Source: Candidatus Omnitrophota bacterium (GTDB taxonomy: Bacteria > Omnitrophota > Gorgyraeia > Gygaellales > Profunditerraquicolaceae). From it: DNA of 57,336 bases. Under the pieces are notes generated by a model, which had not been told where the DNA came from, did no database searches, and was given only the letters and a program-made list of their open reading frames with translations. The DNA is taken from the NCBI GenBank assembly GCA_023819035.1, contig JAMWCL010000002.1, positions 1 to 57,336 of the forward strand, in the 5' to 3' direction. Positions within the stretch are counted from its first letter, which is position 1. Every line of letters begins with the position of its first letter. A program made the translations under genes and the position numbers. Below, piece after piece: positions 6,001 through 30,719 of the stretch.

Positions 6001-9000
6001 CTATATCTTATACCAAGGTCAGCCTGCAGATAATATCCCTGCCTCTTTAGGAGGCGGAGAGGGGCTTGCCTGGGAGATTCCTAATGAGGTTTCTTCTCAG
6101 GTAAGGATAAAGATAATTGGAGATAATGATGTAACAATAGTAGATACCTCCGATACTAATTTTAAGATTGTTGGTCAAATAAACTTTAGTCCAGCGGTCC
6201 CTGCTCCGGGTGATGAGGTTTGGTATGTGGGCACAAATAAGACAGTAGGTTTTACAAAATTAGGCCAGATTCCTACCCTAAAATTACAATATTGTACCAA
6301 TGATATCTGCACAGGTGAGGGTGATTGGACAACTATTCCGGGAGCAGAAAATATTACCGAACTCAGTCATCAATTTGTTATCCCTGATGCTCTCGGTCAG
6401 GGGGTAAGGATACGCGCAGCAAGTGCGGATCCTAATCGTCCGGCTATTCCCGCGGTCTCCGGGTCGATAGAGATTGCGGATATTATCACGATTATCTCGC
6501 CCAGCGGTGATGAACGCTGGCCAGTAGGCACCACCCAGGCGATTGAATGGAAGACCAATGGAAGCTTAGCCAATGTGAAGATTGAGTATTCTTTAGATGG
6601 GACTACACAGCCCATCGAATGGGTAAGCCCACCGATTACTAACTCTACCCCTTCTAATTCGCAAGGCCAAATCATTACCTTTAACTGGCCTATCTCTGCA
6701 GGTGCTACTACTACCAGTAAAGCAGTAATTAGAATTAGTGATGCTAATCCCAATACTGGAACCCAATCAGCAATCTCTAATCTCTTTAGAATTGTAGGAA
6801 GTTTTATCTTTACCTCACCCACCTCCAGTTCAGTATGGCCGGTGACCCAGGGTTATATCAATAATCCACCCCAGACGATCTCCTGGACAACCAACGGCGT
6901 TATTCCTTTGGTGAATTTATGGTATTATTCTACTTCTGGACCTCAACCGGGAACATTTGTAAAGATTAATGATCAACCTATAAATGTGCAGGGAACAAGT
7001 GGAAGTTATCTCTGGAATGTTCCTGATGCTATTTCTAATGCGGTAAGACTGCGCATTGAAGATGCCACCGATCCTTATATTGATGAGGAACATCCTGGAA
7101 CCTCCCAAGTTTCCTCCACATTTACTATCTGTGGAGCATTACAGTTAATCTCGCCATTGGCAGGAACGGTACTTAAGGTTGCTCCTTCTCCTTTAACCCC
7201 GAATACTATATCTTGGAATTATAATGGTAGTTTAGGAAATCTAAATATCTTTTATTCCTTAGATGGTTGTAATGGTCCCTGGAGTCAGATTAATGCTTCA
7301 CCGGTTCCTTCAGTAGACCGTTCTTATTATTGGCAGACACCAGAAAATATTATGACCCCCAATGCCTGTATCAAGGTAGAAAATACAGAGAGTGGTTCAC
7401 TTTATGTAAAAAGTGATTCGGGAGGTGGCTTTAACATTGTGGCACGCATTGAGATAGATGAGCCTGACGCGGGAGATACTATCTTAGCGGGAGAGGATTA
7501 TGAGATTAGATGGAATAAGTGGGGAAGCGGTTGCCAATATGTAAAGATAGAGCTTTCTACCGACGGAATAAATTATGATAAAATAATTACGGAAAGCACA
7601 GGTGCAGATGTAGGTGCGTTTCTTTGGCTTAAGGATGCCCTGGTAAATGCCTCAGATAATATTACCAAGACCGCGCGCATCCGTATCTCTGATACAAATG
7701 CCGAGCTTCCCTCAAGTGCGGAATCGGGTCTATTTACCATCCAGGCACAATTTAGCTTTAATCCGATAGTTTTACCTTTAGAGGTAGGTAGCCAATATGA
7801 TATCGTCTGGACAAAGAAGGGAAATATCCCTTATGTGCTTTTACAGTACTCTACGGATAATTTTGAGGATGATAAGCGCAATGCGGTCACTAATATTAAT
7901 GGGGATACAACTACCTTAGTTCCTAATGTAGGTGGGCAGAATGATCCACCTTCTCGTGCAAGATATACCTGGACGGTTCCTGATATAATCGATCCTATGG
8001 ATATTAAAGGAATCCATCTCATTGGTGCAGACCAGGTAAAACTGCGTGTCTCCGATCCTAACAATTCCAATGCAGTAGCGGTTTCTAATGAATTTAAGAT
8101 CATTCCTAAGTTTAAGGTTACCTCTCCTGATGGAAATGCTGATCCTAATCTTACTGAGAGATTAAAGGTCGGTCTTCCTTATGAGATCACCTGGACATGT
8201 AGTTCAGACCAAACCAATGTTCCTTATGTAAGGATCCTTTATTCTACCACCGGAGGTCCTCCTTATGATAAGTTAATTACCTCTTCTACTGCAAACGACG
8301 GTTCCTATGCCTGGATTACTGCTAATGGCGGTGTGCCTAATGATATCTCAACCCAGGTCAGGATTCGTATTGAGGATGCTACGGACAGGGCTTATACCGC
8401 CTATGATGAATCCGATAATAACTTTAAGATTATTTCTAACTTTACCTTAAATACACCCAATGGCAATGCGGTCTATGAGGTGGGAAGACCTTGGACTATC
8501 TCTTGGTCGAATAAAGGCACAGTCAATAATGTGGAATTATCCTATTCTATTAACGGAGAAGATTTTAGTGATCCTATAATTATTGCCTCCTCCGTAGCTA
8601 ATAATCCCGATCCCATAAATGGCGGAGGAAGTTATGAGACAGTGGTGCCTAATGGAATAAGTTATAATGTGCGTGTACGGGTACGCAGTCTTACTGACGA
8701 TGGTTATGATATCTCGGATAATAATTTTAGAATCCGCGGTAGGATTGAGGATGTGGTAGTAAATAACAACCAGCCGGTTCCCATCCATCAGGATGTTCCG
8801 ATTACCTGGACTACTTATGGAACCGTTCCTTATGTAGATATTCTTTATGATCTTTATGATGGCAAGGGTTGTGATGGGACTGAAGGAACACAGGATGATT
8901 ACTGGAATCCTGGTCCGGATAAGGTTTGCGGAACCTCAGATGATTATCTAAATGTGATTGCCCTTAATCTACCCAATTGTATACCTCAGGCACCTGCCTT

Positions 9001-12000
9001 AAGCTGTAATGGGTCAGCTACCTGGACCTATGTTCCTGATGAACCCACTCCTTTGGGAAGAATTAAGATTTCTGATTCGCGTACCAATCCTGATAATACT
9101 GATGTAAAAGGGATCTCCCCAAGATTTAATATCATCGGTAATTTCACCATAATTTCACCCAATGGTAACGAAGATTTAAGGGTAGGAACCCAACATAATA
9201 TTACCTGGAGATGGGGTGGAACGATCCCTCAGGTAAGACTATTCTATACTAAAAACCCATCCCCTAATCCAGAAGATGTTCCGGAAAATGATTGGATTGA
9301 GATTGATCCTGAGGTAATTAAAGATTATAGCAATGATGGAAAGGGTGATGGTAGCGGTGACGCAGAACGTAGTTATCTTTGGACCGTACCCGATGATATT
9401 GCCCCTAAGGTAAGGATTAAGATTCAGGATTATAACGATCCGACAGTAAGGGATTACTCTGATAACTTCTTTAAGATTAGAGGTGCATTTACCTTAATTT
9501 CACCTAATGGCCATCCTGAGATTAACTTAGCGGAACGTTGGGTAACCAATGAGAAACACAATATTAGCTGGATAACCTACGGAACCATTCCTTATGTAAG
9601 ATTACAATACTCCAATGATGACTTTATCTCGGATATCCATGAGATAATTCCTGAGCCACCTTATACGGTGGCTAACTGTTTACCGCAAGCACCGGAATTG
9701 ACCTGCACTGGCTCTTATCAATGGACTATCCCCAACGCGGTTTTAAAGGATGATAAAGGTATGTATCTTAATTATAATGCAGTAAAGGTCCGCATTATTG
9801 ATCCTAATGACCCGCCTACCCAGGATGATCCAGGGGTAGCGGATGTCTCAGATAACAATTTTAAGATCGACCATTATAAGATTACCTGGAAGCTCTATGA
9901 TTTAACTACTGGTGAACCATTGACTAATTTATCTTATACTGAAAAGATTACCGGTACAGACATTGTGAATCGTACAGGTGGAGGTCTTACTACCCCGGTG
10001 ATCTTACCCACTACCTATGGAACCTGGACGACTACCTGGATTGCTTCCGGCTATGGTGAAAAGGGTCAGAACTTTGTTGCGGATAGTGACCAGAGCTTTA
10101 CCTTATTCCTGGAGACTACAGTAATTCATATCTGGCGGGCATATTCCGAATTTGCCTATCAACCTCCTGAGACTGAACCACCTACCCCGGATATCTTAAA
10201 TATAAGCTCCTGGTTAGAAAGGGATGGCGCGGTAGTCTCCGGTGCCGTAGTTCCCGATGTTTATCTCTACGATGGGTTAAGCTTAATAAAGAGATTAACC
10301 GCGATAAAGAACGAAGATGACCCTCAGCCCGGTAAGATTACCATCTATTACTGCCAGGATATTCCTTTAGGCGCAGTAGAGATCTGGGTCGGTCAAAGAG
10401 AAGACGGTACTGAGCGCACTGTTCAGGATATTGTTAATGAGGTAGCTCCTTGGATAGTGTCTCAGGAGACAATAAATGAGAGCGCCTTTACTGGATTCTT
10501 TAAACAGACCTGGACAGACACACCTCTAGAATCAGGAAAGGTCTATAATACCATTACTGATATAATGAATAAGAGTGGCGCTCATTTTAGAACCCCAGGT
10601 TCCTTTGAGATAACCGCTGCCAAGAGCCTACAAGAGATGCAGGCAACCGTAAACTCTGTGCTTAATAAACCGATTAGCGAGGTAAGCCAAGAGCTACAAG
10701 AGGCATTAAATACCCAGACCCAGCTAATTAATCAGATGATGACGGAGCAGACCAACATCATTACCCAGAAGACTAATGAAATGCAGGAGACGATAAATAC
10801 AACCATGGAAAGGTTTGAGAATACTACGCGGGAATCCTTGGATCTGTTAGCCTCAGGTGCAAAACAGGCAGTAGAAGCAGGTCAGACCTTGGAATACACC
10901 GCGTTAAAATATTCCTGGAAAGCAACCGTCTCACCCGATCCTGCCTTAGTCAACGATATGATTACCTTACAATGCCAAGGTCAACCCGGAAAGACACCCT
11001 TCTTAACTATTTATAGCTGGGATAACAAATATATTGTGCGCGATGTTCCTTTGAAGGAATCTAGCACCCCTGGTCTTTATATTTATGAGTTTAAAGCAGA
11101 CTCGCGTTTTACCCCTGGTAAAGCCTATACCTACACTATTATTGAGTATGATACCGATGGTTTTGTTACTGGTTCAGGTATGGTAGAAAGTATGTCGATT
11201 ACCACGGTAGCCGGTCTTGCTTCAGCTGCTCCTGAGGCGGAACGCGCAGCTAAAAATGCCTTAGAGGCAATTAAAGCGGTGGAGGCGGTCCTGGCTTCTG
11301 CAGATACAGCAAATGTGGCGTTAACCTTAAGAAATCTTAAAGATTCTATTGAGGCTTTACCAGCAGTTCTTATGCGCGAAGGTCCCACTGCCCGGATTGT
11401 TGAGGCGGTTAATAATATCAGTGAAAGACTAAATGTGATCTTAGGAGAAGAGGGTCTTGATTTAAGTACATTGTTAGAAGAGGCATTAAGCGAATCACCT
11501 ACCCTTAAAGAGATCCGCAAGAAGACCGACACCATAAGTATGATTATTGATTTACTTTTACAGATTGTAGAAGGGAAATTAGGTGGTTTAGATACTCCGG
11601 TGGTTTCTACCTCCCTTATTGCTGGCAGTGTAAGGTTTCGCATTGTGGCGGTTAACCCCTCTACCATTAAAACACATAAGGTTCAGATAAAGAATTATTT
11701 ACCTTTAGAGGTAAAGCCCAAGGATATTTTAGATTTAGGAGGTTTAGAATTAGAATACGATTCCGCAAAAGGAATATATTACTTATATAAACCTGATTTA
11801 GAATTAGCACCTAAAGAGGTGCGTATCTTTGAGGTAGAGGTGGAGGATATCTGGACGATCCCTGAATCTAAGATTAATGAATTAAAGAAGCATACCACGG
11901 ATATCCTTAAGCTTCTGGAGAAAACCAATTATTTTGCGGAAGCAAAGGCTGTCTCCGACAGTATCTATCGCAGTTTAGATGAGATTATAAAATCTCAGAA

Positions 12001-12328
12001 CGATGACTCGGTTAGTCGTGAGCAACATATCGGTATTTATCGTCAGAATATAGAGGTGGTTAAACAGATTGAAGAGGATATAGCCAAATTAGAAAAGATG
12101 CTTAAGCCTCCTTCAGGGGTTGCTACACCTGAGGTTTTAGAAAAGGCAAAATTAAAGATAAATCTTCCCTCAAAGACGACTACCTGGTTAATAATTATAG
12201 CGATCATTATCTTTTTAGGATTGTTAGCGGGGGTATTCTTCTTCATCTGGCAGGCACAGGTGCGTTCAAGTCAAGAGGTTATCAAACAAGCTAAGGAGTC
12301 ATCTTTTCCCGAAAAAGAAAATAAATAG
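2..12328 (+). CDS. Giant cell-surface repeat protein, 5'-truncated by the window edge (>4,100 aa visible). It has tandem ~100-aa Ig-like beta-sandwich modules, a non-repeat C-terminal region with coiled coil, and a single C-terminal TM anchor.
   Basis: Frame 2 has no stop from nt 2 to the TAG at 12326-12328. The track's TTG start at 59 lies inside a module (YAWNIPVNFQNISETCVIRL...FKIRT). Modules share the pattern W..G....I.W...G....V.I.Y...Y.W.(V/I)P......(R/K)I(R/K)(I/V)...F.I. The only hydrophobic helix is WLIIIAIIIFLGLLAGVFFFIW at ~12184-12249. Confidence 0.85.
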   Translation, partial: YAWNIPVNFQNISETCVIRLRSGSVGGEGTELTAYSPQFKIRTKLLQVTSPSSGEVWYVGDTTKKIRWEAESGKKNDGSWPKVKIEYNVNDGAFKQLIPGQDVIVDCVNGLNEYIWTAGVADEKSDKIKIRISFVDYSDISITSDYFTIYPVINILSPNADSTIKVGSSNNPVSFTYTGSKITLVNVRYDTNNGLGADGQPATGDEFAGVIQDNLAVSGGSAEVMWNSIPDAIYPTAQIKVKVYDTQNPSIQAESQAFRIVGNLVLTAPSGQSTSWTAGSTQNISWNFGGTMRVNVFYNLNSGIGNWTPIAPLSYKDVSGVSGSATLAWDLPLIATNKARIKLEAEGDPGVYSISQEDFKIGAKFEVLNPEDGVALYVGDNYEITWNTFGISGVNYVAIEYTNNDSTGQTWNSITTSAPNSGSWSWIVPGSLADLSNDCRIRIYQYDPANEIDNTVNLGSGLAFRIKPKLIFINPSPPLSWSIGEQHPIKFKKRGAIQKVDLYYSYDGNPLNFTYKINSTPIDISGLADDTEYTYDWTIAEDTPLTPGYTGKIKVKVNEPATQTSVEAVQSNTIEVKGLLTLNTPSAEGISMVYTGPNYMITWTPVGQIQDVKLYYSTNGGYQGGGSYPESNFITQVASSLGQYSWPVPDKIGDNLRIKVCDANNCEAVYDESDYPFTIKGKLTLDVPDTQGIIWEVNTTQQIKWTPTGTWSSVEIHYDTDGDFSDGQNTFPFKSTGALTPNDGIEDWIVPDKISSNVKIRIRDPDHPDVQAISSYPFSIVGKINSVTSPSSGEVWYVGDTTKKIRWEAESGKKNDGSWPKVKIEYNVNDGAFKQLIPGQDVIVDCVNGLNEYIWTAGVADEKSDKIKIRISFVDYSDISITSDYFTIYPVINILSPNADSTIKVGSSNNPVSFTYTGSKITLVNVRYDTNNGLGADGQPATGDEFAGVIQDNLAVSGGSAEVMWNSIPDAIYPTAQIKVKVYDTQNPSIQAESQAFRIVGNLVLTAPSGQSTSWTAGSTQNISWNFGGTMRVNVFYNLNSGIGNWTPIAPLSYKDVSGVSGSATLAWDLPLIATNKARIKLEAEGDPGVYSISQEDFKIGAKFEVLNPEDGVALYVGDNYEITWNTFGISGVNYVAIEYTNNDSTGQTWNSITTSAPNSGSWSWIVPGSLADLSNDCRIRIYQYDPANEIDNTVNLGSGLAFRIKPKLIFINPSPPLSWSIGEQHPIKFKKRGAIQKVDLYYSYDGNPLNFTYKINSTPIDISGLADDTEYTYDWTIAEDTPLTPGYTGKIKVKVNEPATQTSVEAVQSNTIEVKGLLTLNTPSAEGISMVYTGPNYMITWTPVGQIQDVKLYYSTNGGYQGGGSYPESNFITQVASSLGQYSWPVPDKIGDNLRIKVCDANNCEAVYDESDYPFTIKGKLTLDVPDTQGIIWEVNTTQQIKWTPTGTWSSVEIHYDTDGDFSDGQNTFPFKSTGALTPNDGIEDWIVPDKISSNVKIRIRDPDHPDVQAISSYPFSIVGKINSVTSPSSGEVWYVGDENKEIRWDATGTVTHVDIAYKTSLGGAYNTIVAGDPGHSAGANSYSWPVVGDIKSETVYIRVCPAGTEERCAESAEFKIRPKITVTINDADGRLPVGSYIDTPLIKWTCSSQSQTPSVNVLYDLYNGNGPDGLPNTNDEYQGVIANLVPVGAGSTGIPWYNDGQGVPDEMTSQPTLKIKVVDSSSPSVFGLSNVPLKIVGDLTLLKPTTGGAENGEYLKVGQDFLIQWAKKGTALTQVTLWYSDDGGQDGFVHPILPLGTEYIPAGSTGGQYTWVNIPNTTSNNVIVRISDYNDPETKAFSPAIHIQSILDIRTPDGGETWAAGDDREIIWTVSGKTRYVKLQYAINGGGANDTWYDIAEHDNQNTWTAPPDPPAEFSYLWMNIPEQAVSNNVKIRVIDKADEENWNESASVFRIRPSVTVISPNGNEEWLVGSTQYIKWSLKGTVNVVDVLYSVDGGNYNYILYQGQPADNIPASLGGGEGLAWEIPNEVSSQVRIKIIGDNDVTIVDTSDTNFKIVGQINFSPAVPAPGDEVWYVGTNKTVGFTKLGQIPTLKLQYCTNDICTGEGDWTTIPGAENITELSHQFVIPDALGQGVRIRAASADPNRPAIPAVSGSIEIADIITIISPSGDERWPVGTTQAIEWKTNGSLANVKIEYSLDGTTQPIEWVSPPITNSTPSNSQGQIITFNWPISAGATTTSKAVIRISDANPNTGTQSAISNLFRIVGSFIFTSPTSSSVWPVTQGYINNPPQTISWTTNGVIPLVNLWYYSTSGPQPGTFVKINDQPINVQGTSGSYLWNVPDAISNAVRLRIEDATDPYIDEEHPGTSQVSSTFTICGALQLISPLAGTVLKVAPSPLTPNTISWNYNGSLGNLNIFYSLDGCNGPWSQINASPVPSVDRSYYWQTPENIMTPNACIKVENTESGSLYVKSDSGGGFNIVARIEIDEPDAGDTILAGEDYEIRWNKWGSGCQYVKIELSTDGINYDKIITESTGADVGAFLWLKDALVNASDNITKTARIRISDTNAELPSSAESGLFTIQAQFSFNPIVLPLEVGSQYDIVWTKKGNIPYVLLQYSTDNFEDDKRNAVTNINGDTTTLVPNVGGQNDPPSRARYTWTVPDIIDPMDIKGIHLIGADQVKLRVSDPNNSNAVAVSNEFKIIPKFKVTSPDGNADPNLTERLKVGLPYEITWTCSSDQTNVPYVRILYSTTGGPPYDKLITSSTANDGSYAWITANGGVPNDISTQVRIRIEDATDRAYTAYDESDNNFKIISNFTLNTPNGNAVYEVGRPWTISWSNKGTVNNVELSYSINGEDFSDPIIIASSVANNPDPINGGGSYETVVPNGISYNVRVRVRSLTDDGYDISDNNFRIRGRIEDVVVNNNQPVPIHQDVPITWTTYGTVPYVDILYDLYDGKGCDGTEGTQDDYWNPGPDKVCGTSDDYLNVIALNLPNCIPQAPALSCNGSATWTYVPDEPTPLGRIKISDSRTNPDNTDVKGISPRFNIIGNFTIISPNGNEDLRVGTQHNITWRWGGTIPQVRLFYTKNPSPNPEDVPENDWIEIDPEVIKDYSNDGKGDGSGDAERSYLWTVPDDIAPKVRIKIQDYNDPTVRDYSDNFFKIRGAFTLISPNGHPEINLAERWVTNEKHNISWITYGTIPYVRLQYSNDDFISDIHEIIPEPPYTVANCLPQAPELTCTGSYQWTIPNAVLKDDKGMYLNYNAVKVRIIDPNDPPTQDDPGVADVSDNNFKIDHYKITWKLYDLTTGEPLTNLSYTEKITGTDIVNRTGGGLTTPVILPTTYGTWTTTWIASGYGEKGQNFVADSDQSFTLFLETTVIHIWRAYSEFAYQPPETEPPTPDILNISSWLERDGAVVSGAVVPDVYLYDGLSLIKRLTAIKNEDDPQPGKITIYYCQDIPLGAVEIWVGQREDGTERTVQDIVNEVAPWIVSQETINESAFTGFFKQTWTDTPLESGKVYNTITDIMNKSGAHFRTPGSFEITAAKSLQEMQATVNSVLNKPISEVSQELQEALNTQTQLINQMMTEQTNIITQKTNEMQETINTTMERFENTTRESLDLLASGAKQAVEAGQTLEYTALKYSWKATVSPDPALVNDMITLQCQGQPGKTPFLTIYSWDNKYIVRDVPLKESSTPGLYIYEFKADSRFTPGKAYTYTIIEYDTDGFVTGSGMVESMSITTVAGLASAAPEAERAAKNALEAIKAVEAVLASADTANVALTLRNLKDSIEALPAVLMREGPTARIVEAVNNISERLNVILGEEGLDLSTLLEEALSESPTLKEIRKKTDTISMIIDLLLQIVEGKLGGLDTPVVSTSLIAGSVRFRIVAVNPSTIKTHKVQIKNYLPLEVKPKDILDLGGLELEYDSAKGIYYLYKPDLELAPKEVRIFEVEVEDIWTIPESKINELKKHTTDILKLLEKTNYFAEAKAVSDSIYRSLDEIIKSQNDDSVSREQHIGIYRQNIEVVKQIEEDIAKLEKMLKPPSGVATPEVLEKAKLKINLPSKTTTWLIIIAIIIFLGLLAGVFFFIWQAQVRSSQEVIKQAKESSFPEKENK
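143..2359 (+). repeat. Copy 1 of a 2,217-bp in-frame tandem duplication inside the giant gene (739 aa, seven Ig-like modules)
   Basis: Identical to 2360-4576 at every DNA stretch I compared, and across the whole 739-aa translation. The antisense shadow ORFs 1922-2104 and 4139-4321 are identical and offset by exactly 2,217 nt. Confidence 0.95.
2360..4576 (+). repeat. Copy 2 of the 2,217-bp tandem duplication. Identity continues 42 nt further (4577-4618 = 2360-2401 = 143-184) into the next, diverged module.
   Basis: Same as copy 1. The first mismatches are at 142 vs 2359 (left edge) and 2402 vs 4619 (right edge). Confidence 0.95.
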
Positions 12329-12353
12329 ATGCCTTTAAGTTAACTTTTTAAAA

Positions 12354-12390
12354 GGCAACCTCTTGTATAAAAAGGGGTTGTCTTTTTTAT
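12354..12390 (+). terminator. Rho-independent terminator downstream of the giant gene
   Basis: GGCAACCTCT (12354-12363) pairs with AGGGGTTGTC (12373-12382). That is a 10-bp stem with two G-U pairs and a 9-nt loop, followed by TTTTTTAT. Confidence 0.6.
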
Positions 12391-12419
12391 TTAGCATTTT
12401 TTAAAAATAGTGATATAAT
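12391..12419 (+). promoter_or_regulatory. Sigma70-like promoter for the ATPase operon
   Basis: TTAGCA (12391-12396), 17-nt spacer, TATAAT (12414-12419) preceded by TG at 12411-12412 (extended -10). The ATG at 12433 is only 13 nt after the -10 and no SD is visible. Confidence 0.5.
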
Positions 12420-12432: not shown

Positions 12433-12666
12433 ATGTTAGATGTAATTGTGGTCAGTGTCCAAAAGAGTATCTTTTCTGGTAAAGCAAAGAGTATAATCTT
12501 TCCAGGGGAAAAGGGGGTATTTGAGATCCTTCCCTTCCACAAGCCCATCTTAAGTAGATTAATCCGGGGAAATCTGGTTATCGACGGAAAAACCTTTTCT
12601 ATCCGAAGAGGAATTGTGGGGTTTAATTATAATAAGGCTTATATAGTTATAGAAGAAGATGGATAG
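12433..12666 (+). CDS. atpC: F-type ATPase epsilon subunit, beta-sandwich domain only (77 aa; the C-terminal helical hairpin is absent)
   Basis: The sequence VSVQKSIFSGKAKSIIFPGEKGVFEILPFHKPILSRLIRGNLVI matches the epsilon N-terminal consensus (lpg.eGe.giLp.H.P.l..L..G). The stop overlaps the next ATG (ATGGATAG). Confidence 0.75.
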   Translation: MLDVIVVSVQKSIFSGKAKSIIFPGEKGVFEILPFHKPILSRLIRGNLVIDGKTFSIRRGIVGFNYNKAYIVIEEDG

Positions 12667-12871
12667 AAATTTAGCATTACTTTTAATTTTTTCTGCTTGT
12701 ATCTTTGGGCCGTGTTGGGTCTTTGCAGTGTGCGCCAAGGCAAGTATTAATGCCTTAGGAAGAAATCCTTCCGCTGCTCCGCGCATATTTACTGCCATGA
12801 TTATTGCCTTGGTCTTCGCCCAGGCAGCAGCGATAATTGCCATGTTAGTTGTATTTCAACTGTTTAGTTAG
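12659..12871 (+). CDS. atpE: F-type ATPase c-subunit-like hairpin protein (70 aa) lacking the ion-binding carboxylate
   Basis: Two hydrophobic helices are joined by the loop GRNPSAAP (canonical ARQPE). Helix 2, TAMIIALVFAQAAAIIAMLVVF, aligns to TTMFIGVALVEALPIIGVV of a canonical c subunit with Q in place of E. It lies between epsilon and b. Confidence 0.7.
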   Translation: MDRNLALLLIFSACIFGPCWVFAVCAKASINALGRNPSAAPRIFTAMIIALVFAQAAAIIAMLVVFQLFS

Positions 12872-12880
12872 GAGGATAAT

Positions 12881-13606
12881 ATGCTTATTGTTTCGTTAGT
12901 GGTAATTCAGGTAATTATCTTTGTAGTTTTATTTTTGTTTTTGCGTAGTAGTTTTAATAAAAATGTAATTAGTGCTACCACCCATCTTGAGCAGTTGTCA
13001 CAGGAATATACCAAGAAACAAGAACAGATAAAAAATCTATATGAGGAAGCCAAACGTCAAACTCAGGAGATTATTGAAAGTTCACGCAAGGATGCCGAAA
13101 AGCAAAGAGAGCAGATCCTGAAGGATGCACAATTAGAAAAAGAAAGGATCTTAAATACCGCCCATCAGCAGGCCAATGAGATTGTAGAGCAGGCAGACAA
13201 AGCAAGAAAGACTTTACTTTCGGAGATAGAAAAGAAGATAGAAGAGAGGGCAATCCAGCGCGCAGGAGATTTATTAAATGAGATTCTTCCTTTGGATCTC
13301 CGTCAGCAGATTCATCAGCACTGGATAGAAGATTTACTTTCGGCAGGGTTTCAGCAATTAGAGCGCCTGCATATACCCGAGGGGATCACCGAGGCAGAGC
13401 TTATCACTGCCTTTGCTTTGGAGCCGATAAAGAAAGAGGTTTTAATAAAAAAGATCCAAGAAAGACTGAATCGTCAGCTTAATTTTAAAGAGAAGGTCGA
13501 CGAAGATATAATTGCAGGTTTAATTGTAAATATTGGAAATCTTGTTTTTGATGGAAGTCTTAGATTAAAGCTCCAGGAGTTAATTAATGCTAAACAGTCA
13601 ACTTAA
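12881..13606 (+). CDS. atpF: F-type ATPase b subunit fused to the C-terminal domain of delta (OSCP)
   Basis: There is an N-terminal TM (LIVSLVVIQVIIFVVLFLFL) and a long charged helix. The C terminus, AELITAFALEPIKKEVLIKKIQERLNRQLNFKEKVDEDIIAGLIVNIGNLVFDGSLRLKLQEL, aligns with the delta C-terminal consensus (...vd.sliGG..i..gd.viDgSv...L..L). Confidence 0.75.
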   Translation: MLIVSLVVIQVIIFVVLFLFLRSSFNKNVISATTHLEQLSQEYTKKQEQIKNLYEEAKRQTQEIIESSRKDAEKQREQILKDAQLEKERILNTAHQQANEIVEQADKARKTLLSEIEKKIEERAIQRAGDLLNEILPLDLRQQIHQHWIEDLLSAGFQQLERLHIPEGITEAELITAFALEPIKKEVLIKKIQERLNRQLNFKEKVDEDIIAGLIVNIGNLVFDGSLRLKLQELINAKQST

Positions 13607-15065
13607 CCAAAAGAGTCAGCCAAGCTTTGAGGTAAAAGAAAAAGGAATCATTACCACTGTCCGCGAATGTATTATAAAGGTTAAAGGGCTTCCCTCCTGT
13701 ATTAACGGTCAGTTGATTGAGTTTAAAGGCGGTGGTCAGGGGATGGTCTTGGGGTTTACCGAGGAGGAGGTTCAGGTTTTAGTTTTGAATTCCAAGGTTA
13801 GTCTCTCTACAGGAGATGAGGTTTACAGTAAAGCAGAGTTCCTTCATCTTCCTGTGGGTGAAGGATTCATCGGCCGTATTGTCAATGCCTTATGCGAACC
13901 CTTAGATGATTTAGGTCCTATCCAGCCCCAAGCTTTTTATCCGGTCTTTGCGGAGGTTCCCGGGGTGATGGATCGTATACCGGTAAAAGAAACCCTGGAG
14001 ACAGGAACCTTGGTTATCGATGCGGTTATACCCATCGCTAAAGGTCAAAGACAACTCCTTATTGGTGACCGCTTAACCGGAAAGACAACAGTAGCGATAG
14101 ATACGATATTAAATCAGAAAGGTAAAGAGGTAATCTGTATTTATTGTTGTATTGGTAAACCCCAGAGTAGCTTAGCAAAGGTCTTGGATCTTCTTAAAGA
14201 AAAGGAGGCGATGTCTTATACAATTGTGGTAAATGGTGTTGCCTCCTGCTCGATGGGAGAACAGTACCTTGCCCCTTATACCGCTGCCATGTTAGGTGAA
14301 TATTTTATGCATCAAGGAAAGGATGTCTTTGTGGTTTTTGATGACTTAACTAAGCATGCCTGGGTTTATCGGCAGATCTCGCTTTTATTGGAGCGCGTTC
14401 CGGGGAGAGAGGCTTATCCTGGAGATATATTTTATATTCACTCCCAGCTTATGGAACGTGCAGGTTACTTAAAACCGGAATTGGGTGGTGGCTCAATGAC
14501 CTTCTTTCCGATTGTGGAGATTTTACAGGGAGATGTTACAGGTTATATCTCAAGTAATCTTATCTCTATGACCGATGGGCAGATCTATTTTAATACCGCT
14601 TTATTTAATAAAGGAATTAGGCCGGCGATCGATTTCGGGCTTTCGGTCTCCCGTATCGGAAACAAGGCCCAATGGCCAGCGATGAAGGCTTTAAGCGGTA
14701 AGTTGCGCTTAGAGTATCTCCAATATCAGGAGCTTCTCCAGATGACCCAGTTGCGTACTACTGGTCTTTCTAAAGAAGCAGAGCAACAGATGAAACGCGG
14801 TCAAGCAATTACCCAGATATTTATCCAGGATAAGAACAGGCCCTTATCCATGGAAGAAGAGATAATTATTCTTTTTGCCTTAAGTATCGGGGTATTAGAT
14901 AATCTTTCAAGTTCTGCGATTAAGGAATTTAAGGAAAAGATTATTGAAATTATTAAAAAGGATTATTCAGATTTACTAGTAGAATTAAGAAGTACTCAGG
15001 TTCTAAGTGATGCCAATATAGAAAGGTTATACGAGGCATTGGATAAATATTTTCAGAATATCTAA
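13587..15065 (+). CDS. atpA: F-type ATPase alpha subunit
   Basis: Walker A GDRLTGKTT, then VFDDLTKHA, REAYPGDIFYIHSQLMERA and ISMTDGQIYF; 492 aa. Confidence 0.92.
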   Translation: MLNSQLNQKSQPSFEVKEKGIITTVRECIIKVKGLPSCINGQLIEFKGGGQGMVLGFTEEEVQVLVLNSKVSLSTGDEVYSKAEFLHLPVGEGFIGRIVNALCEPLDDLGPIQPQAFYPVFAEVPGVMDRIPVKETLETGTLVIDAVIPIAKGQRQLLIGDRLTGKTTVAIDTILNQKGKEVICIYCCIGKPQSSLAKVLDLLKEKEAMSYTIVVNGVASCSMGEQYLAPYTAAMLGEYFMHQGKDVFVVFDDLTKHAWVYRQISLLLERVPGREAYPGDIFYIHSQLMERAGYLKPELGGGSMTFFPIVEILQGDVTGYISSNLISMTDGQIYFNTALFNKGIRPAIDFGLSVSRIGNKAQWPAMKALSGKLRLEYLQYQELLQMTQLRTTGLSKEAEQQMKRGQAITQIFIQDKNRPLSMEEEIIILFALSIGVLDNLSSSAIKEFKEKIIEIIKKDYSDLLVELRSTQVLSDANIERLYEALDKYFQNI

Positions 15066-15068
15066 AAG

Positions 15069-15911
15069 ATGAAGTTACTTTCTCAGATTAAAAAGGATTT
15101 AGAATTTAATCAAGCACTTTTTAATTTGATTGAGGTAATAAAGGAGATCTCCCTTTCTCAATATCATGTGTTAGAAAAACAGAAAAGAGAATTTGGAGAT
15201 CTTTTTGATTGTCTTAAGAATATATTTACGATGATTAGTCTAAGTGAGATTAAGCATCCCTTGCTTGATATACAAGGTCAGCAAGCAGGGGTAATTGCGG
15301 TAACTACCGACACCGGTTTAGTAGGTGGGCTTAATCTTTCGGTAATAAATCTGGCTTTAAAGGAGGTAGAAGAGAATAAAGCTAAATTAATTATTATTGG
15401 AGAAAAAGGTAAGTTTTATGCCCAAGATGCGCAAGTTTCCTTTGTCGCATTTGCTGGGATAAAAGACGATGAATGCCTTAAGCAAGCCCTGGAATTAAGG
15501 GATTACATTATAAAGGAGGAGTTAGAATTAAGGTTAGGTCAATTAAAGATTATCTATCCTTATCCTATCTCAATTGTGGCTCAGCGGGTAGAGACATTAC
15601 AGCTTTTGCCCTTTGTTCTAACTGAGTTTAAGACAAAAGAGGCGTTTTCTTATAAGGAATTAATCCTTGAATCCTCTTTAGAAGATGTCTTAGAATATCT
15701 AATCTATCTTTTGTTAGGCAATAAACTTTATGAGATATTTACCTTAAGCCGCTTAGCAGAATTATCCGCGCGTTTTATGCATTTAGAGGAAAGTAAAACC
15801 AAGATTGAACAGCTTAATCGGCAACTAAGATTACAATACCATCGCCAGCGCCACGAGCTTATTGACCGCACGATGCGCGAACTCTTTGGAGCGCGTCTGG
15901 TCTTCGGTTAA
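15069..15911 (+). CDS. atpG: F-type ATPase gamma subunit
   Basis: 280 aa between alpha and beta. TDTGLVGGLN matches the gamma motif (sd+GLcG..N), and the C-terminal helix is QYHRQRHELIDRTMRELFGA. Confidence 0.85.
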   Translation: MKLLSQIKKDLEFNQALFNLIEVIKEISLSQYHVLEKQKREFGDLFDCLKNIFTMISLSEIKHPLLDIQGQQAGVIAVTTDTGLVGGLNLSVINLALKEVEENKAKLIIIGEKGKFYAQDAQVSFVAFAGIKDDECLKQALELRDYIIKEELELRLGQLKIIYPYPISIVAQRVETLQLLPFVLTEFKTKEAFSYKELILESSLEDVLEYLIYLLLGNKLYEIFTLSRLAELSARFMHLEESKTKIEQLNRQLRLQYHRQRHELIDRTMRELFGARLVFG

Positions 15912-15916
15912 GAATT

Positions 15917-17317
15917 ATGAATAAAGATATAAAAGCATCTATTGGTTATGTGGTGGCGGTCCAGGGACCGGTAGTGGATGTAAAATTCCCTGATTCCGAG
16001 GATATGCCGGCGATTTTAGAGAATCTTAACACCCAGACTGTCGATAGGAAAAGGGTAGTCTTAGAGGTTGTCGAACATCTGCCCGGCAATATCGTGCGCT
16101 GTATTGCAATTAACTCCACCTTTAATCTTCAGCGCCATGCGGTGGTTACGCGTACCGGTGAACCCATCCAGATTCCTCCCGGAGATGCTCTTTATGGCCG
16201 GATTGTTAATTGTTGGGGAAGTCACATAGACCAAAAAGAAGAGATTGTCGCTACCGAGAAGATCCCCATTCGCAAGCCTAAGACCTCAAGTCGACTGATT
16301 TACACCCAGCAACGCGCAGGGGATAAATTTGAGATCCTTGAGACAGGGATTAAGATTATTGACCTGCTCTTTCCTTTAGTTAAAGGAAGCAAGAATGGTA
16401 TCTTAGGTGGTGCTGCCTTAGGAAAGAGTATCTTGACCTTAGAAATAATCCATAATATTGTAAGAAAACATCAGGGTGCCTGTGTCTTTACCGGAGCAGG
16501 AGAGCGTATTCGCGAAGGAAATGAGCTTTACTTTGAGCTTTCCCGTCGGGATATTTTATCCAAGACGGTTTTGATCTTCGGTCAGATGAATGAGCCACCC
16601 GGTGCACGTTTTGAGGTAGCAATGAGTGGGGTTACCTTAGCGGAGTCACTTCAGCAAAAAAATCAAGATGTGCTTTTGTTTGTGGATAATATCTTTCGTT
16701 TCTTACAGGCAGGGGCAGAGATTTCCAGTCTCTTAGGAAGGCTTCCTTCGGAAACCGGTTATCAACCCACCTTAATCTCGGAGGCAAGTGAGTTTCATGA
16801 GAGGATACGCTCCTCTAAAGAGACGGGTGGTTCGATTACCTCGATTGAGGCGGTTTATATCCCTGCGGATGACCTTACTGATCCAGCGGTAGTAACTATA
16901 TTTAGTTTTTTGGATTCCATTATGGTGCTTTCTCGACAGAGGGTGCAATTAGGGCTTTATCCGGCAATCGACCCTTTGCTCTCTTCAAGTGCTAATCTTG
17001 ACCCGGATATCGTAGGGGGGCGCCATTTTGAAGTAGCCCAGGAGGTTTTACATACCCTTCAGCGCTATGAAGAATTAAGAAGGATTGTTATGGTAATTGG
17101 TATCGATGAGCTTTCTGCGGGAGACCGTATCCTTTATGAACGTGCACGGAAATTACAGAATTTTTTAACCCAGCCCTTCTTTGTGGCAGAGGCATATACG
17201 GGTAAGATGGGTGAGTATGTAACCTTAGAACAGACCCTTTTGGGATGCGAAAAGATTATGGCAGGCCATCTGGATCGTCGACCCGAGGGCGAACTCTATA
17301 TGATTGGAGCAATATAA
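15917..17317 (+). CDS. atpD: F-type ATPase beta subunit (catalytic motifs intact)
   Basis: P-loop GGAALGKS, catalytic GAGERIREGNELY, GQMNEPPGAR, Walker B LLFVDNIFRFLQAG, YIPADDLTDPA. The DELSEED region is changed to DELSAGD. Confidence 0.92.
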   Translation: MNKDIKASIGYVVAVQGPVVDVKFPDSEDMPAILENLNTQTVDRKRVVLEVVEHLPGNIVRCIAINSTFNLQRHAVVTRTGEPIQIPPGDALYGRIVNCWGSHIDQKEEIVATEKIPIRKPKTSSRLIYTQQRAGDKFEILETGIKIIDLLFPLVKGSKNGILGGAALGKSILTLEIIHNIVRKHQGACVFTGAGERIREGNELYFELSRRDILSKTVLIFGQMNEPPGARFEVAMSGVTLAESLQQKNQDVLLFVDNIFRFLQAGAEISSLLGRLPSETGYQPTLISEASEFHERIRSSKETGGSITSIEAVYIPADDLTDPAVVTIFSFLDSIMVLSRQRVQLGLYPAIDPLLSSSANLDPDIVGGRHFEVAQEVLHTLQRYEELRRIVMVIGIDELSAGDRILYERARKLQNFLTQPFFVAEAYTGKMGEYVTLEQTLLGCEKIMAGHLDRRPEGELYMIGAI

Positions 17318-17328: not shown

Positions 17329-17808
17329 ATGAAAGAAATGCCTAAACGTTTAGGTGAGATATTGCTGGAAAAAGGGCTGATTACCGAGGCACAGCTTTAC
17401 GATGCGTTAGCAGAGCAGAGTCTAAGTAATAAATTCTTAGGAACAATCTTAGTTACCAAAGGCTGGATTACCGAGCATCAACTTATGGAGGCACTTGCTG
17501 AACAGTTCAATATGCCTCTTGTAGAATTAAAGAAAGACCAGGTGAACATGGAGTTGTCTAATTTACTTTCCTCATCCCTGATCTTAGACCATAAGTGTTT
17601 CCCTATAGAGCAAACCCCGGATACCTTAACCGTGGCCATCGTTAATCCCCTGGATGCAGTAGCAATTAGTAAAATCGAACAAGAGGCAAAACCGCGCAAG
17701 ATAAAGCTGGTCTTGGTTACTGAGGAGAACCTAAAAGAGATCCTCTTAGATTATCGTCGGTATATCAGTCAGAGTATCCAACGGCTCTTAAGAAGAGATA
17801 AGAAATAA
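17329..17808 (+). CDS. Stand-alone MshEN (c-di-GMP-binding) + T2SSE_N domain protein
   Basis: ATG at 17329 lies 6 nt after AGGAG (17318-17322); the longer ORF from 17245 overlaps atpD. There are two tandem 24-aa MshEN motifs, RLGEILLEKGLITEAQLYDALAEQ and FLGTILVTKGWITEHQLMEALAEQ, followed by a GspE-N1-like domain (TLTVAIVNPLD). Confidence 0.8.
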   Translation: MKEMPKRLGEILLEKGLITEAQLYDALAEQSLSNKFLGTILVTKGWITEHQLMEALAEQFNMPLVELKKDQVNMELSNLLSSSLILDHKCFPIEQTPDTLTVAIVNPLDAVAISKIEQEAKPRKIKLVLVTEENLKEILLDYRRYISQSIQRLLRRDKK

Positions 17809-19925
17809 TGACTAAGTTCGATACCCTTCTTTATGAAACCCTAATTAATCAAGAAAGATTTAAAAAGGATACCTTACAGCCCTATCTTAAAGAAGCAGAA
17901 CAGATGAATCAACCCTTAGCGAGTGTGCTTATCAGACATAATCTTCTTCCTGAGGTAGAGATTCTGCATATTTTTAGTGAACAGCTTAAGATACCCTTTA
18001 TTGATCTTAAGAATATCTCTATAGAGAAATCAGTCATAGATAAGGTTCCGGTTAAGGTTGCTTTTTATTATAAATTTATTCCTTTACAGATTAAAGAACG
18101 CACCTTGATCATTGCTGTTTCTTTACCCTTAGATATTAAGGTTCAGGATGAGATTCGCACTCAATTAGGTTATGATATTGAGCTTGTGCTTGCTTCTTCC
18201 GCAGATATCCGCGATAGTTTAACTAAATACTATGGTCTTGCTCAGGAGACATTGGAAAAGATTATTGAACGGATCCCTTTTGCCGAAACAAGCAACCTCT
18301 CCTTAGAGAAGATTGAAGACATCGAAAGGTTGGCTGAGGATGCCTCGGTAATAAAATTAGTAAATCAAATAATCCTTGAAGCCTACAGAAAACGTGCTAC
18401 CGATATACACATCGAGCCCTATCGCCAAGGGGTGGTCATTCGTTATCGGATAGATGGGGTTCTTTATGATACTAATGTCCCTACAGAAATTAAAAATCTT
18501 CTTGGGGCGATTATCTCGCGCATAAAGATTATGTCTAATCTCAATATTGTAGAGCGCAGGCTCCCCCAAGATGGTCGGGCAGTGGTAAAGGTTCAGGAGC
18601 AGATTCTTGATTTAAGGATCTCAACCTTACCTACCCCTTTTGGAGAAAGTGTAGTAATTAGAATCCTTCCTACTCAGATGCTCTTTAGTTTGGAGAGGTT
18701 AGGTTTATCCAAGCAGGACTTACAGATATTGGAGAATCTGATTAAAAAACCTCATGGGATTATCTTTGTTACCGGGCCTACGGGAAGCGGAAAGACCACT
18801 ACCTTATATGCCTGTTTAGCCAAGATCAATACCAAGGAAAGAAAGATTATTACCATTGAAGACCCTATTGAATATGAGATGCCGGGGATTACCCAGATCC
18901 AGGTTAATCCCGAGATCGGCTTGGATTTTGCGCGTGGCCTGCGCAGTGCCCTACGACATGATCCTGATGTGATGATGGTCGGTGAGGCGCGGGATTTAGA
19001 GACTGCAGAGACCGCCATCCGCGTTGCCTTAACCGGGCATCTTGTATTTTCTACCCTGCATACCAATGATGCTAGCTCCGGGATTACGCGTTTATTAGAT
19101 ATTGGGATTGAACCATATTTGGTGGCTTCCAGTGTAGAGGCGTTTATTGCTCAGCGTTTGATCCGTTTGATTTGCCCAGAATGTAAATATGAAGACAAGG
19201 CAGCACCTCAAGAATTAAAGATAATGATTGCTAAGGACTTAGGGATTAAATCACTGGAAGAGGTAAGGATCTATCGGGGAAGGGGATGTCCAAATTGTAA
19301 CTTTACAGGATTCTTTGGTCGAACCGGGATATATGAGATACTTTTAGTGGATGAGACTATCAAGGATTCAATCTTAAAAAAGACCCCTTCCAACCAAATC
19401 AAAAAGAGCGCTATCTCCGAAGGGATGCATACCTTAAGACAGGATGGTTGGCAGAAGGTGATTGCGGGAATTACCCCTCCTGAAGAGGTAATGAAGGTTA
19501 CCCCCCAGGAGGAAGAGGTAGAAAAAGCCACCTCTGTCTATTATCCTGGAGTTTCTTCTGCAGGAAGGGAATTAGAGAAAAGGATTTATAAACGTCTGGA
19601 TAGCCGTATCCTTATAAGTTACCGTATCTTTAAGGCTCAAGAAGAATTAATTAAGCGGGGGGTCTCGTCTGAGCAGATCAGTATTACCAAGAATATCTCA
19701 GCAGGGGGATTGCTTTTTATCTCTCCCGAGGCATTACCTGTAGGGGAGGTGCTTGAGCTTAAGATAGAGCTTCCTGATGGAGAAAGCCCGGTCGATTGCT
19801 TAGCCAGGGTGGTAAGAACAGAGATGACCAGGGATGACAAATATGAGATCGGGGTCTGTTTCTTAGATATCACGGGCGCACAAAGGTCTAGGTTAGATAG
19901 ATATGTAGAGGCGGAGGTAAGATAA
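17808..19925 (+). CDS. gspE: GspE/PilB-family secretion ATPase with a C-terminal PilZ domain
   Basis: Walker A GPTGSGKTTT, DPDVMMVGEARD, His box TGHLVFSTLHTND, zinc motif CPECK...CPNC. The C-terminal ~116 aa carry PilZ motifs RIYKR (RxxxR) and NISAGG ((D/N)xSxxG). The start overlaps the previous stop by 1 nt. Confidence 0.9.
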   Translation: MTKFDTLLYETLINQERFKKDTLQPYLKEAEQMNQPLASVLIRHNLLPEVEILHIFSEQLKIPFIDLKNISIEKSVIDKVPVKVAFYYKFIPLQIKERTLIIAVSLPLDIKVQDEIRTQLGYDIELVLASSADIRDSLTKYYGLAQETLEKIIERIPFAETSNLSLEKIEDIERLAEDASVIKLVNQIILEAYRKRATDIHIEPYRQGVVIRYRIDGVLYDTNVPTEIKNLLGAIISRIKIMSNLNIVERRLPQDGRAVVKVQEQILDLRISTLPTPFGESVVIRILPTQMLFSLERLGLSKQDLQILENLIKKPHGIIFVTGPTGSGKTTTLYACLAKINTKERKIITIEDPIEYEMPGITQIQVNPEIGLDFARGLRSALRHDPDVMMVGEARDLETAETAIRVALTGHLVFSTLHTNDASSGITRLLDIGIEPYLVASSVEAFIAQRLIRLICPECKYEDKAAPQELKIMIAKDLGIKSLEEVRIYRGRGCPNCNFTGFFGRTGIYEILLVDETIKDSILKKTPSNQIKKSAISEGMHTLRQDGWQKVIAGITPPEEVMKVTPQEEEVEKATSVYYPGVSSAGRELEKRIYKRLDSRILISYRIFKAQEELIKRGVSSEQISITKNISAGGLLFISPEALPVGEVLELKIELPDGESPVDCLARVVRTEMTRDDKYEIGVCFLDITGAQRSRLDRYVEAEVR

Positions 19926-19928: not shown

Positions 19929-21143
19929 ATGCCTATCTATAAGTATCGCGCAAAAAAAGATCCGCAACATACGGTGGAAGGAGAGATAGATGCATTAAAT
20001 GAGAATGAGGCAGTAGAGAAACTCAGTCAGATAGGTTATCTTCCCATAAGCCTTCATTTAGTCAAAGAAGGGCTTACTCCTAAGCCTGCTCCTTTTCGCT
20101 TATTGGGTAAGATAAAGCCCAGACAGATTACTGTTTTTACTCGACAGTTGGCCAGCCTCTTAAAAGCAGGTGTTCCTATCCTTACCAGTATCAATATCCT
20201 AAAGGAACAATCAGAGAGTATCCCTTTAAACAATCTTCTTAAACGGCTCCATGATCGACTTAATGAGGGAGCGACCTTTTCTGCTTCCTTAGAGGAATTC
20301 CCTCAGGTTTTCCCTTCTCTTTATGTGGCTATGATTCGTTCTGGAGAAGATAGCGGTACCCTCACTGAGGTTCTTTTAAAGATTGCTGATTATCGCACAA
20401 AACAAGAGGAGATTCTCCAGCGTTTGCGCACTGCTTTAGTTTATCCTCTCTTGATGGCAGTGGTCGGAATAGCCACCATTATCTTTATGCTTACCTTTGT
20501 GATGCCTCGTTTGATGAGTATATTTGCTAATCTGCAAGAAGAATTACCCTTACCGACTAAGCTCTTACTTTGGGTAAGTAAAACTCTTAAGGATTGGGGT
20601 CTTTGGTTAATCATTATCTTAGGGATGATTATCTTGATGCTTAGGCGTCAGGCGATGACTGAATCAGGTAGATTATCCTTAGCGCGCTGGCAATTAAGAA
20701 TTCCTATATTAGGAGGATTTATCCTGAAAAATGAGCTTGCCCGTTTTAGCCGAACATTGGAGCTTTTACTTAAAAATGGCCTGTCCATATTAAAGGCAAT
20801 TGAGGTAGCTATACCGGTTTTAAGGAATGCCCTGCTTAAGCAGGAGCTTCTAAAAAGCTCTAAGGATTTACAACAAGGTGGCTCCTTTGGCAGGAGCCTT
20901 AAGAATTCAGCTTTATTTCCTTCTTTTATGAGTAATCTTGTACTTGTGGGAGAGGAGTCAGGAGCACTGGCTGATTCCTTAGCTGAGGTTGCTCAGGCCT
21001 ATGAGGGCGACACCGAGGAGACAATAAGGATTTTTTTATCTTTACTTGAACCGTTGCTAATCCTGGGTATGGGTTTAATAGTGGGGTTTATTGTGATTGC
21101 CATGCTTTTGCCTATCTTTCAGATCAATGTGATGGCGCGGTAA
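19929..21143 (+). CDS. gspF: GspF/PilC-family inner-membrane platform protein
   Basis: 404 aa with two T2SSF-like repeats (FTRQLASLLKAGVPIL; FSRTLELLLKNGLSILKA) and three TM segments. It lies directly after gspE. Confidence 0.9.
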   Translation: MPIYKYRAKKDPQHTVEGEIDALNENEAVEKLSQIGYLPISLHLVKEGLTPKPAPFRLLGKIKPRQITVFTRQLASLLKAGVPILTSINILKEQSESIPLNNLLKRLHDRLNEGATFSASLEEFPQVFPSLYVAMIRSGEDSGTLTEVLLKIADYRTKQEEILQRLRTALVYPLLMAVVGIATIIFMLTFVMPRLMSIFANLQEELPLPTKLLLWVSKTLKDWGLWLIIILGMIILMLRRQAMTESGRLSLARWQLRIPILGGFILKNELARFSRTLELLLKNGLSILKAIEVAIPVLRNALLKQELLKSSKDLQQGGSFGRSLKNSALFPSFMSNLVLVGEESGALADSLAEVAQAYEGDTEETIRIFLSLLEPLLILGMGLIVGFIVIAMLLPIFQINVMAR

Positions 21144-21582: not shown

Positions 21583-21607
21583 CCTTAAACTAATATAAAT
21601 TAAATTT

Positions 21608-26246: not shown

Positions 26247-26255
26247 GAGTCGCTT

Positions 26256-30655: not shown

Positions 30656-30719
30656 CCGGGTTATATCACCTGCCAAATCAGGCTCTATTTGAAATAGAAG
30701 ATGATAAGGAGGTAAAAAG

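Follow-up and report, generated by a model that had tools for sequence, protein, structure and literature searches.

An Omnitrophota F-type ATPase gene cluster without an a subunit, next to pilus and secretion genes: a predicted rotary motor uncoupled from ion movement

Omnitrophota are abundant, ultra-small bacteria, probably predatory or parasitic in their way of life. Seymour et al. (2023, Nat Microbiol, PMC10066038) described 'symbiotic', non-respiratory F-type ATPase loci in this phylum. In 57 of 66 contigs the non-respiratory homologue is co-located with genes of a type IVa pilus (T4aP), its alpha subunit clusters with those of the Mycoplasma type 2 and type 3 enzymes, and a role in attachment or motility is put forward as a hypothesis. 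The KEGG orthology (KO) table given there for genome 221 lists K02111 and K02112 without K02108-K02110, with V-type subunits present. Here we analyse a 57,336-nucleotide (nt) stretch of DNA from a Candidatus Omnitrophota bacterium (contig JAMWCL010000002.1, positions 1 to 57,336; 'the window'), in which six F-type ATPase genes lie tightly packed on the + strand at 12433-17317, in the order epsilon, c, b/delta, alpha, gamma, beta.

Judged by its sequence, the window cluster is an ortholog of the published 'symbiotic F-type ATPase', so that the kind is already known. It shares with those loci the phylum, F-type genes less than 10 kb from a type-IV-pilus-like cluster, and giant open reading frames (ORFs) in the same genomes. 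The V. archaeovorus LiM locus named by Seymour et al. (PMC10066038) is in our reference set (L053) and is homologous to the window cluster. The main text of that paper contains no occurrence of a missing a subunit or of the c subunit, and its available passages are silent on a b/delta fusion, a truncated epsilon or an anchor module. What is added here is the absence of a from 60 loci, an unconstrained carboxylate position in c, a b subunit joined to the delta C-terminal domain, a truncated epsilon and an anchor module encoded 5' of the ATPase genes. These anatomical details sharpen the hypothesis of Seymour et al. and make it testable.

A literature search beyond Seymour et al. (2023) returned nothing relevant on F-type ATPases that lack a and adjoin pili. 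West-Roberts (2023) noted genes like those of the type II secretion system (T2SS) beside giant genes, not the ATPase. A 2026 preprint on 176 complete Omnitrophota genomes reports that most are without a complete F1Fo and that V/A-type subunits are common. The ProAD census flagged 20 F/N-ATPases with a c subunit lacking the carboxylate; it requires a to call a complex, and Omnitrophota-type loci would thus have counted as incomplete.

Our reference set comprised 80 loci from species-representative genomes, retrieved with alpha as the query; 57 are Omnitrophota-type and 23 canonical, the canonical control operons being those of Patescibacteria and Clostridia. Pfam annotation covered every ORF of the 57-kb window from 90 aa upwards, and none matches PF00119 (ATP-synt_A). 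A custom hidden Markov model (HMM) trained on 18 canonical a subunits, run on every window ORF of 45 aa or longer, found no match. It found none in 60 Omnitrophota-type loci either (best E above 1), whereas it recovered a in 22 of 22 canonical loci reaching far enough upstream (E<=1e-42). PF00119 is also absent from the Pfam-annotated neighbour contigs L001, L002 and L084. The preliminary description of this DNA had reported a cluster without an a subunit, and this is true of the cluster, of the whole window and of 60 orthologous loci.

The c subunit is a short proteolipid hairpin that scores 17.5 bits on TIGR01260, against a cut-off of 44. It keeps a conserved RNP loop and lacks the GxGxGxG motif in helix 1. 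In canonical c, the RNP loop contacts gamma and epsilon. At the position of the essential carboxylate the window protein has Gln55 (codon 12821-12823). We judged this column on 22 canonical c sequences from the fetched loci, all of which have Glu (22/22); among Omnitrophota species representatives it reads E 42, Q 8, F 1, S 1 and M 1, and among the 120 closest 90%-identity clusters E 77, Q 41 and M 2.

Parsimony on the alpha tree, with 48 related species, counts at least eight independent changes in this column, from an ancestral Glu. We conclude that the position, as read from these sequences, is evolutionarily unconstrained in the clade. The loss at Gln55 is an event of the window lineage itself, because its nearest relatives (L004-L007) have Glu. 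A ring of Gln-only c subunits cannot carry H+ or Na+. Gln55 therefore predicts an enzyme that could not be chemiosmotic even with an a subunit supplied in trans. As a separate observation, two c-like genes that differ from each other stand in tandem in 'Candidatus Aceula lacicola' (L041, 5571-6040), and each encodes Glu in the carboxylate column.

Like c, the gamma (86 bits on TIGR01146, cut-off 194), epsilon (38 bits, NCBIfam cut-off 67) and b/delta proteins all score far under equivalog cut-offs. Epsilon lacks the C-terminal helical hairpin and measures 74-106 aa in the clade (median 80), compared with 132-139 aa in the canonical controls. The b/delta protein starts with a transmembrane (TM) helix, continues as a full-length b-like helix (aa 5-151) and ends in a delta C-terminal domain (aa 167-236). 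It covers positions 103-172 of the 179 of delta; the delta N-terminal domain, which binds alpha, is missing in 52 of 52 loci. Taken together, these subunits supply a peripheral stalk, in the form of b fused to the delta C-domain with one TM helix, and the parts of a rotor, namely gamma, the N-domain of epsilon and the c hairpin with its RNP loop.

Alpha and beta score above the canonical atpA/atpD equivalog cut-offs. Alpha reaches 548.7 bits on TIGR00962 (cut-off 484.45) and 569.3 on NF009884 (cut-off 554), beta 556.7 bits on TIGR01039 (cut-off 462.85), and the closest PDB matches of both are canonical bacterial F1 subunits, at 450-490 bits. Beta has the P-loop GGAALGKS, the catalytic Glu in GERIRE and Walker B in LLFVDNIFRF; DELSAGD replaces the DELSEED sequence. 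The P-loops, catalytic Glu, Walker B and the arginine finger of alpha are at least 95% conserved within the clade. Thus the motifs that had been called intact in the window are so throughout its relatives, and alpha3beta3 is predicted to be catalytically intact.

The closest beta sequences are 72-83% identical to that of the window and come from metagenome-assembled genomes (MAGs) of Candidatus Omnitrophota wherever a source is named; beta orthologs are automatically annotated 'F0F1 ATP synthase subunit beta'. Identity at this level over many MAGs indicates genes under strong selection. In neighbour-joining trees of alpha and beta (100 bootstraps, with outgroups limited to the Patescibacteria and Clostridia controls), the clade is monophyletic in 99/100 replicates for beta and 78/100 for alpha. 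Scores drop by about 200 bits from the clade to the next 50%-identity cluster.

The layout of the cluster had been described beforehand, and most of that description holds. Every one of the six subunits has a Pfam match (Table 1). Epsilon and c overlap by 8 nt, c and b/delta are 9 nt apart, alpha and gamma 3 nt, and gamma and beta 5 nt. These junctions respect the 10 nt that had been given as the upper limit; that limit is slightly too tight for b/delta and alpha, which overlap by 20 nt with the first-ATG call. The MshEN gene follows beta after about 11 nt, if the ATG at 17329 is its start. A terminator and promoter on the left and an MshEN gene on the right had been named as the boundaries, and both are found, the left one as a terminator-like hairpin and a promoter-like site.

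Hairpins comparable to the one 5' of epsilon are present in L004-L007, and the extended -10 element TGnTATAAT 5' of epsilon is also found in L004-L007, L019 and L026. Since this arrangement of a hairpin followed by TGnTATAAT is shared with related loci, the ATPase cluster probably has its own, predicted promoter. Between beta and the MshEN, PilB-PilZ and PilC genes, no terminator-like element was seen. All six reading frames are intact across dozens of species.

It had been asked whether the gene order is conserved in related genomes: epsilon-c-b/delta-alpha-gamma-beta recurs in 27 complete loci, and about ten loci have a second arrangement, alpha'-alpha-epsilon-c-b/delta-gamma-beta. Tandem alpha paralogs stand 5' of epsilon in L035, L043-L045, L050-L052, L056 and L060 (for example, L043 9950-12911). 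The second alpha copy of L043 is without the arginine finger, with SLSIVG instead of SVSRIG. Ahead of the alpha pair, the tandem-alpha loci encode a protein in which the anchor module occurs twice in tandem.

We dropped the idea of an operon order unrelated to known ones. The preliminary description had found that the order matches neither the canonical operon nor the N-ATPase, which overstates the difference, since there are resemblances to both. Compared with canonical F1Fo (atpIBEFHAGDC), the series c-b-delta-alpha-gamma-beta is colinear, and alpha and beta are above the canonical cut-offs; only epsilon has been relocated, to the 5' place where the missing a would sit. The difference lies in what is lost, namely a, the c carboxylate, GxGxGxG, the delta N-domain and the epsilon C-domain, and in a locus set inside a pilus/secretion gene cluster.

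The N-ATPase operon has the order atpDCQRBEFAG (Dibrova et al., 2010, PMC2881411). In common with it, the window cluster has no delta gene, a long b that carries the delta C-terminal region, epsilon 5' of the membrane-sector genes, and consecutive c-(b delta)-alpha-gamma genes. A b subunit fused to the delta C-terminal region, with epsilon before the membrane genes, is in fact the N-ATPase layout. However, the N-ATPase has a, AtpQ, AtpR and a c with a full Na+ site, none of which is found in the window cluster. With an 8-nt overlap, no ORF fits between epsilon and c. Beta leads the N operon, whereas it follows gamma here. The N-type models are all under cut-off (TIGR03324, 523.6 vs 750.5; TIGR03305, 497.8 vs 752; TIGR03323, 33.5 vs 282.35; TIGR03321, 41.8 vs 224.7), and to the last of these, an N-ATPase b model, b/delta aligns weakly over its full length.

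The Mycoplasma type 2 and type 3 F1-like X0 complexes (PMC3369863; PDB 9io5), to which the gliding motor of M. mobile belongs, resemble the window cluster in that they are F1-derived, apparently non-chemiosmotic and without a, and occur with giant surface proteins in a host-attached setting. Their clusters have seven genes, for alpha-, beta-, gamma- and epsilon-like subunits and three unrelated proteins, two of them with 3 and 12 TM helices; c, b and delta are all missing from them (Beven et al., 2012, PMC3369863). By contrast, the window cluster keeps c and b/delta and has no 12-TM protein.

We compared alpha with the Mycoplasma and N-type enzymes by profile scores, and beta with MMOB1670 also by tree. 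Neither alpha nor beta reaches the cut-offs of the MMOB1660/1670 and MSC_0619/0618 models (401 vs 600, 409 vs 850, 309 vs 520 and 387 vs 570). Beta is 40% identical to MMOB1670 compared to 48-51% to ordinary F1 beta, mitochondrial included, and groups with MMOB1670 in 0/100 neighbour-joining bootstraps. The published grouping of alpha with Mycoplasma is thus not mirrored by our alpha profile scores or beta tree. The preliminary description had pointed to F1 recruitment for non-bioenergetic work, with Mycoplasma as its example; such recruitment is still the best reading and is backed by the Gln in c, but kinship with Mycoplasma F1-like X0 is not, given the failed models and the absent beta grouping. 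We conclude that the resemblance to the Mycoplasma motors is functional, not familial, and that the cluster is a member of neither the Mycoplasma F1-like nor the N-ATPase family.

The surroundings of the cluster recur as well. Synteny was counted in 33 informative related loci with a reach of 6 kb up- or downstream. A PilB homolog lies 3' of beta in 33/33 of them and PilC in 32/33; a standalone MshEN gene comes directly after beta in L001, L084 and most loci. On the other side, 25/33 have a giant ORF (700 aa or more) 5' of epsilon; the L001 ortholog encodes 7609 aa.

The giant ORF of the window ends in a module of about 235 residues, in which a beta-sandwich and three long helices are followed by a TM helix and a conserved cytoplasmic tail. 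With an HMM built from seven clean seeds, this anchor module was located 5' of the ATPase genes in 43 loci. In some, as in the window, it forms part of the giant ORF; in others it is a standalone protein of 270-300 aa with a signal peptide, encoded between the giant gene and epsilon. The TM helix spans W209-W230 of a 255-aa segment (nt ~12185-12250). Conservation is 90% or higher at the TM and juxtamembrane residues W209, F218, G220, L222, F227, W230 and Q233, which are among the most conserved of the module. Its AlphaFold2 model has a mean confidence (pLDDT) of 83; no relatives were found in Pfam or among PDB sequences, and Foldseek against the PDB gave nothing below E=0.037.

We considered the anchor module as a substitute for a and rejected it. 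With only one TM helix, and without an Arg inside the membrane, it is not an a analogue. Two half-channels cannot be built from a single TM helix.

MshEN is a c-di-GMP-binding module. The MshEN, PilZ and REC-PilZ genes around the cluster, and REC-GGDEF genes in relatives, suggest control by cyclic di-GMP (c-di-GMP). In V. archaeovorus LiM (L053, 7509-8387), a REC-GGDEF diguanylate cyclase gene, and not the anchor module, stands directly 5' of epsilon; the same placement is seen in L033, L042, L047-L049, L054 and L057.

Table 1. Features of the window in and around the F-type ATPase cluster, with their coordinates
Feature	Position	Strand	Match or remark
Giant surface-protein ORF, >4089 aa, Ig-like repeats, runs off window start	59..12328	+	
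C-terminal anchor module of giant ORF	11618..12328	+	ends giant ORF
Terminator-like hairpin, 15 bp, then T-run	12350..12386	+	3' of giant ORF
Promoter-like site TTAGCA-17 nt-TG-n-TATAAT	12391..12419	+	
Epsilon-like subunit, 77 aa	12433..12666	+	PF02823 E=2e-10; N-terminal beta-sandwich only
c-like proteolipid hairpin, 70 aa	12659..12871	+	PF00137 E=6e-8
b/delta fusion, 241 aa	12881..13606	+	PF00213 E=2e-15, only C-terminal part of profile
Alpha subunit, 492 aa	13587..15065	+	PF00006 E=3e-70; P-loop GDRLTGKT, arginine finger in SVSRIG
Gamma subunit, 280 aa, divergent	15069..15911	+	PF00231 E=4e-34
Beta subunit, 466 aa	15917..17317	+	PF00006 E=2e-65
Standalone MshEN-domain protein	17329..17808	+	PF05157 E=6e-14
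PilB/GspE-type ATPase, N-terminal MshEN and C-terminal PilZ	17808..19925	+	PF00437 E=6e-130; PF05157; PF07238
PilC/GspF platform protein	19929..21143	+	PF00482 E=2.5e-59
Remaining T2SS/type IV pilus (T4P)-like apparatus	29792..35097	+	Pfam

We think it reasonably likely that the cluster encodes a membrane-anchored, ATP-hydrolysing rotary motor that moves no ions and serves the adjacent pilus/secretion apparatus. In such a motor, the complex would be uncoupled from any proton or sodium gradient and would act as an ATP hydrolase only. Gamma, epsilon and c would be turned or strained against a stator held by b/delta, and the mechanical output would feed the T2SS/T4P-like machine and, in most species, the giant membrane-anchored surface protein. 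Its purpose may be attachment, surface movement or predation on host cells, and its control would probably be by c-di-GMP. In principle, this motor would work like the F1-like motors of Mycoplasma, but would have arisen independently from an F-type enzyme.

More tentatively, the cluster may represent a third way of using a rotary ATPase, in which the c ring and stalk are kept, ion translocation is shed, and the motor is wired by intramembrane contacts into a pilus/secretion machine. These contacts could be made by the PilC/PilMNO platform, or by the anchor module that ends the giant adhesin, through its strongly conserved TM helix and tail. A 'protein-handling rotary ATPase' stage has been postulated at the origin of F- and V-ATPases; a machine of this kind would have returned to it by reversal, as its living analogue.

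Several observations weigh against a motor that moves no ions and works for the pilus. By score, the F1 part is not distinguishable from a housekeeping enzyme. Glu is retained in roughly two thirds to four fifths of the c sequences, and the site may matter in most lineages. The c subunit has no extra domain that could transmit work. The giant gene is set apart by a terminator and is absent upstream in 8/33 loci, including that of V. archaeovorus LiM. The search for a covered the 57 kb of the window and about 20 kb per relative.

If the motor exists as proposed, Omnitrophota have an F-type rotary motor that is off the ion gradient and yet has a c ring. The torque generator of ATP synthase would then have been separated from chemiosmosis in a natural, widely conserved complex; together with the Mycoplasma gliding motor, there would be two independent cases. 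Naturally occurring Glu, Gln, Phe, Ser and Met variants of c provide a ready-made experiment on the role of the carboxylate where there is no a. Automated annotation labels alpha and beta as 'ATP synthase', and genome-based metabolic reconstructions that count them as such would also overestimate the chemiosmotic capacity of the phylum.

An alternative that we hold to be unlikely is a complex like the export ATPases of the flagellum and the type III secretion system (T3SS), in which the head, held by b/delta as a FliH-like stalk, would sit on a membrane ring and power the export, unfolding or loading of substrates (the giant protein or pilins) with no continuous torque. The FliH stalk combines b-like and delta-like parts, and the b and delta fusion seen here resembles this architecture. 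As in FliH-FliI-FliJ, an F1-related ATPase would be attached to a secretion machine, and the cluster does have a giant exported protein encoded on one side and a secretion/pilus machine on the other; the conserved cytoplasmic tail of the giant-protein anchor is a possible docking site. FliI/SctN models match alpha and beta as distant homologs, but at 166-179 bits (cut-offs of about 600) compared to 549-557 bits on the atpA/atpD models. The export enzyme is a homohexamer with no c ring, whereas this cluster predicts a heterohexamer whose central gamma leaves no translocation pore, and it retains the c ring that the T3SS is without. There is also no homolog of the T3SS gate in the locus.

We give a slightly smaller chance to an enzyme that still translocates ions, either with an a subunit from elsewhere in the genome or with an unrecognised membrane protein, such as the anchor module or PilC, as the ion path. 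The canonical scores of alpha and beta, the Glu kept by most c sequences of the clade, and a conserved RNP loop, gamma and b that make a complete rotor and stalk would all suit such an enzyme, and our view is limited to part of each genome. Against this, the c of the window has Gln and its column has changed at least eight times, also to Phe, Ser and Met, changes that by established F-type biochemistry would abolish coupling. The helix-1 GxGxGxG is lost, a is adjacent in none of 60 loci compared to 22/22 controls, and the single TM helix of the anchor cannot make two half-channels. In the published KO profile of genome 221, alpha and beta are listed without the KOs for a, b and c.

A decaying, functionless remnant of a housekeeping atp operon, redundant beside a V/A-type ATPase, would explain the lost a, the truncated epsilon and delta and the drifting c carboxylate in a phylum where V/A-type ATPases are common, but we reject it as very improbable because conservation is too high: six intact frames in dozens of species, beta identity of 72-83% across MAGs with invariant catalytic residues, fixed gene order and PilB/PilC surroundings, and a conserved promoter motif.

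The rest of the pilus/secretion apparatus at 29792-35097 consists of a Peptidase_MA-like protein, GspG-like, N_methyl, GspJ-like and GspK-like pseudopilins, a PilM-PilN fusion and PilO/GspM; no secretin was seen in the window. The Peptidase_MA_2-like protein of about 290 aa is encoded between PilC and the major pseudopilin gene in the window (29792-30655), in L001 (15378-16241) and in L084 (15522-16412). The pseudopilin genes come directly after PilC in L001 and L084, whereas in the window a signalling block (21193-29773) is intercalated. This block encodes seven receiver-domain proteins, one of them REC-PilZ, together with Cache-HAMP and GAF histidine kinases, and an extra PilB-type ATPase (26635-28152).

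A second pilus-type set lies at 48794-56273, with a standalone MshEN gene, two T2SSE ATPases (412 aa without MshEN and 542 aa with it), PilC and two N-methyl pilin-like genes; it encloses a two-component pair in divergent orientation. The remainder of the window is ordinary chromosome (L21, Obg, proB/proA, rpe, S1, TyrRS). GC skew is positive in every 2-kb bin of 1-57336 and nearly all genes are on the + strand, which is consistent with the leading strand of one replichore.

The giant ORF contains a 2,259-nt sequence twice, at 143-2401 and 2360-4618, with 100% identity and an offset of 2,217 nt. At 143-4618 a unit of about 739 aa is thus encoded in two perfect tandem copies, through either a very recent duplication or an artefact of the assembly.

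Deviating titles were met in the records of L006, L011, L018, L024, L030-L036, L043-L045, L050 and L065 and of protein P0137. Among them, many with Omnitrophota-type clusters are titled Planctomycetia, Lentisphaerae, Nitrospirota, Deltaproteobacteria and others, a Patescibacteria-like canonical operon is titled Methanosarcinales, and a homolog of the anchor module Methanoperedens. The deviating titles are probably due to mis-binning or loose submitter taxonomy, and they could also reflect a physical association of epibionts with their hosts.

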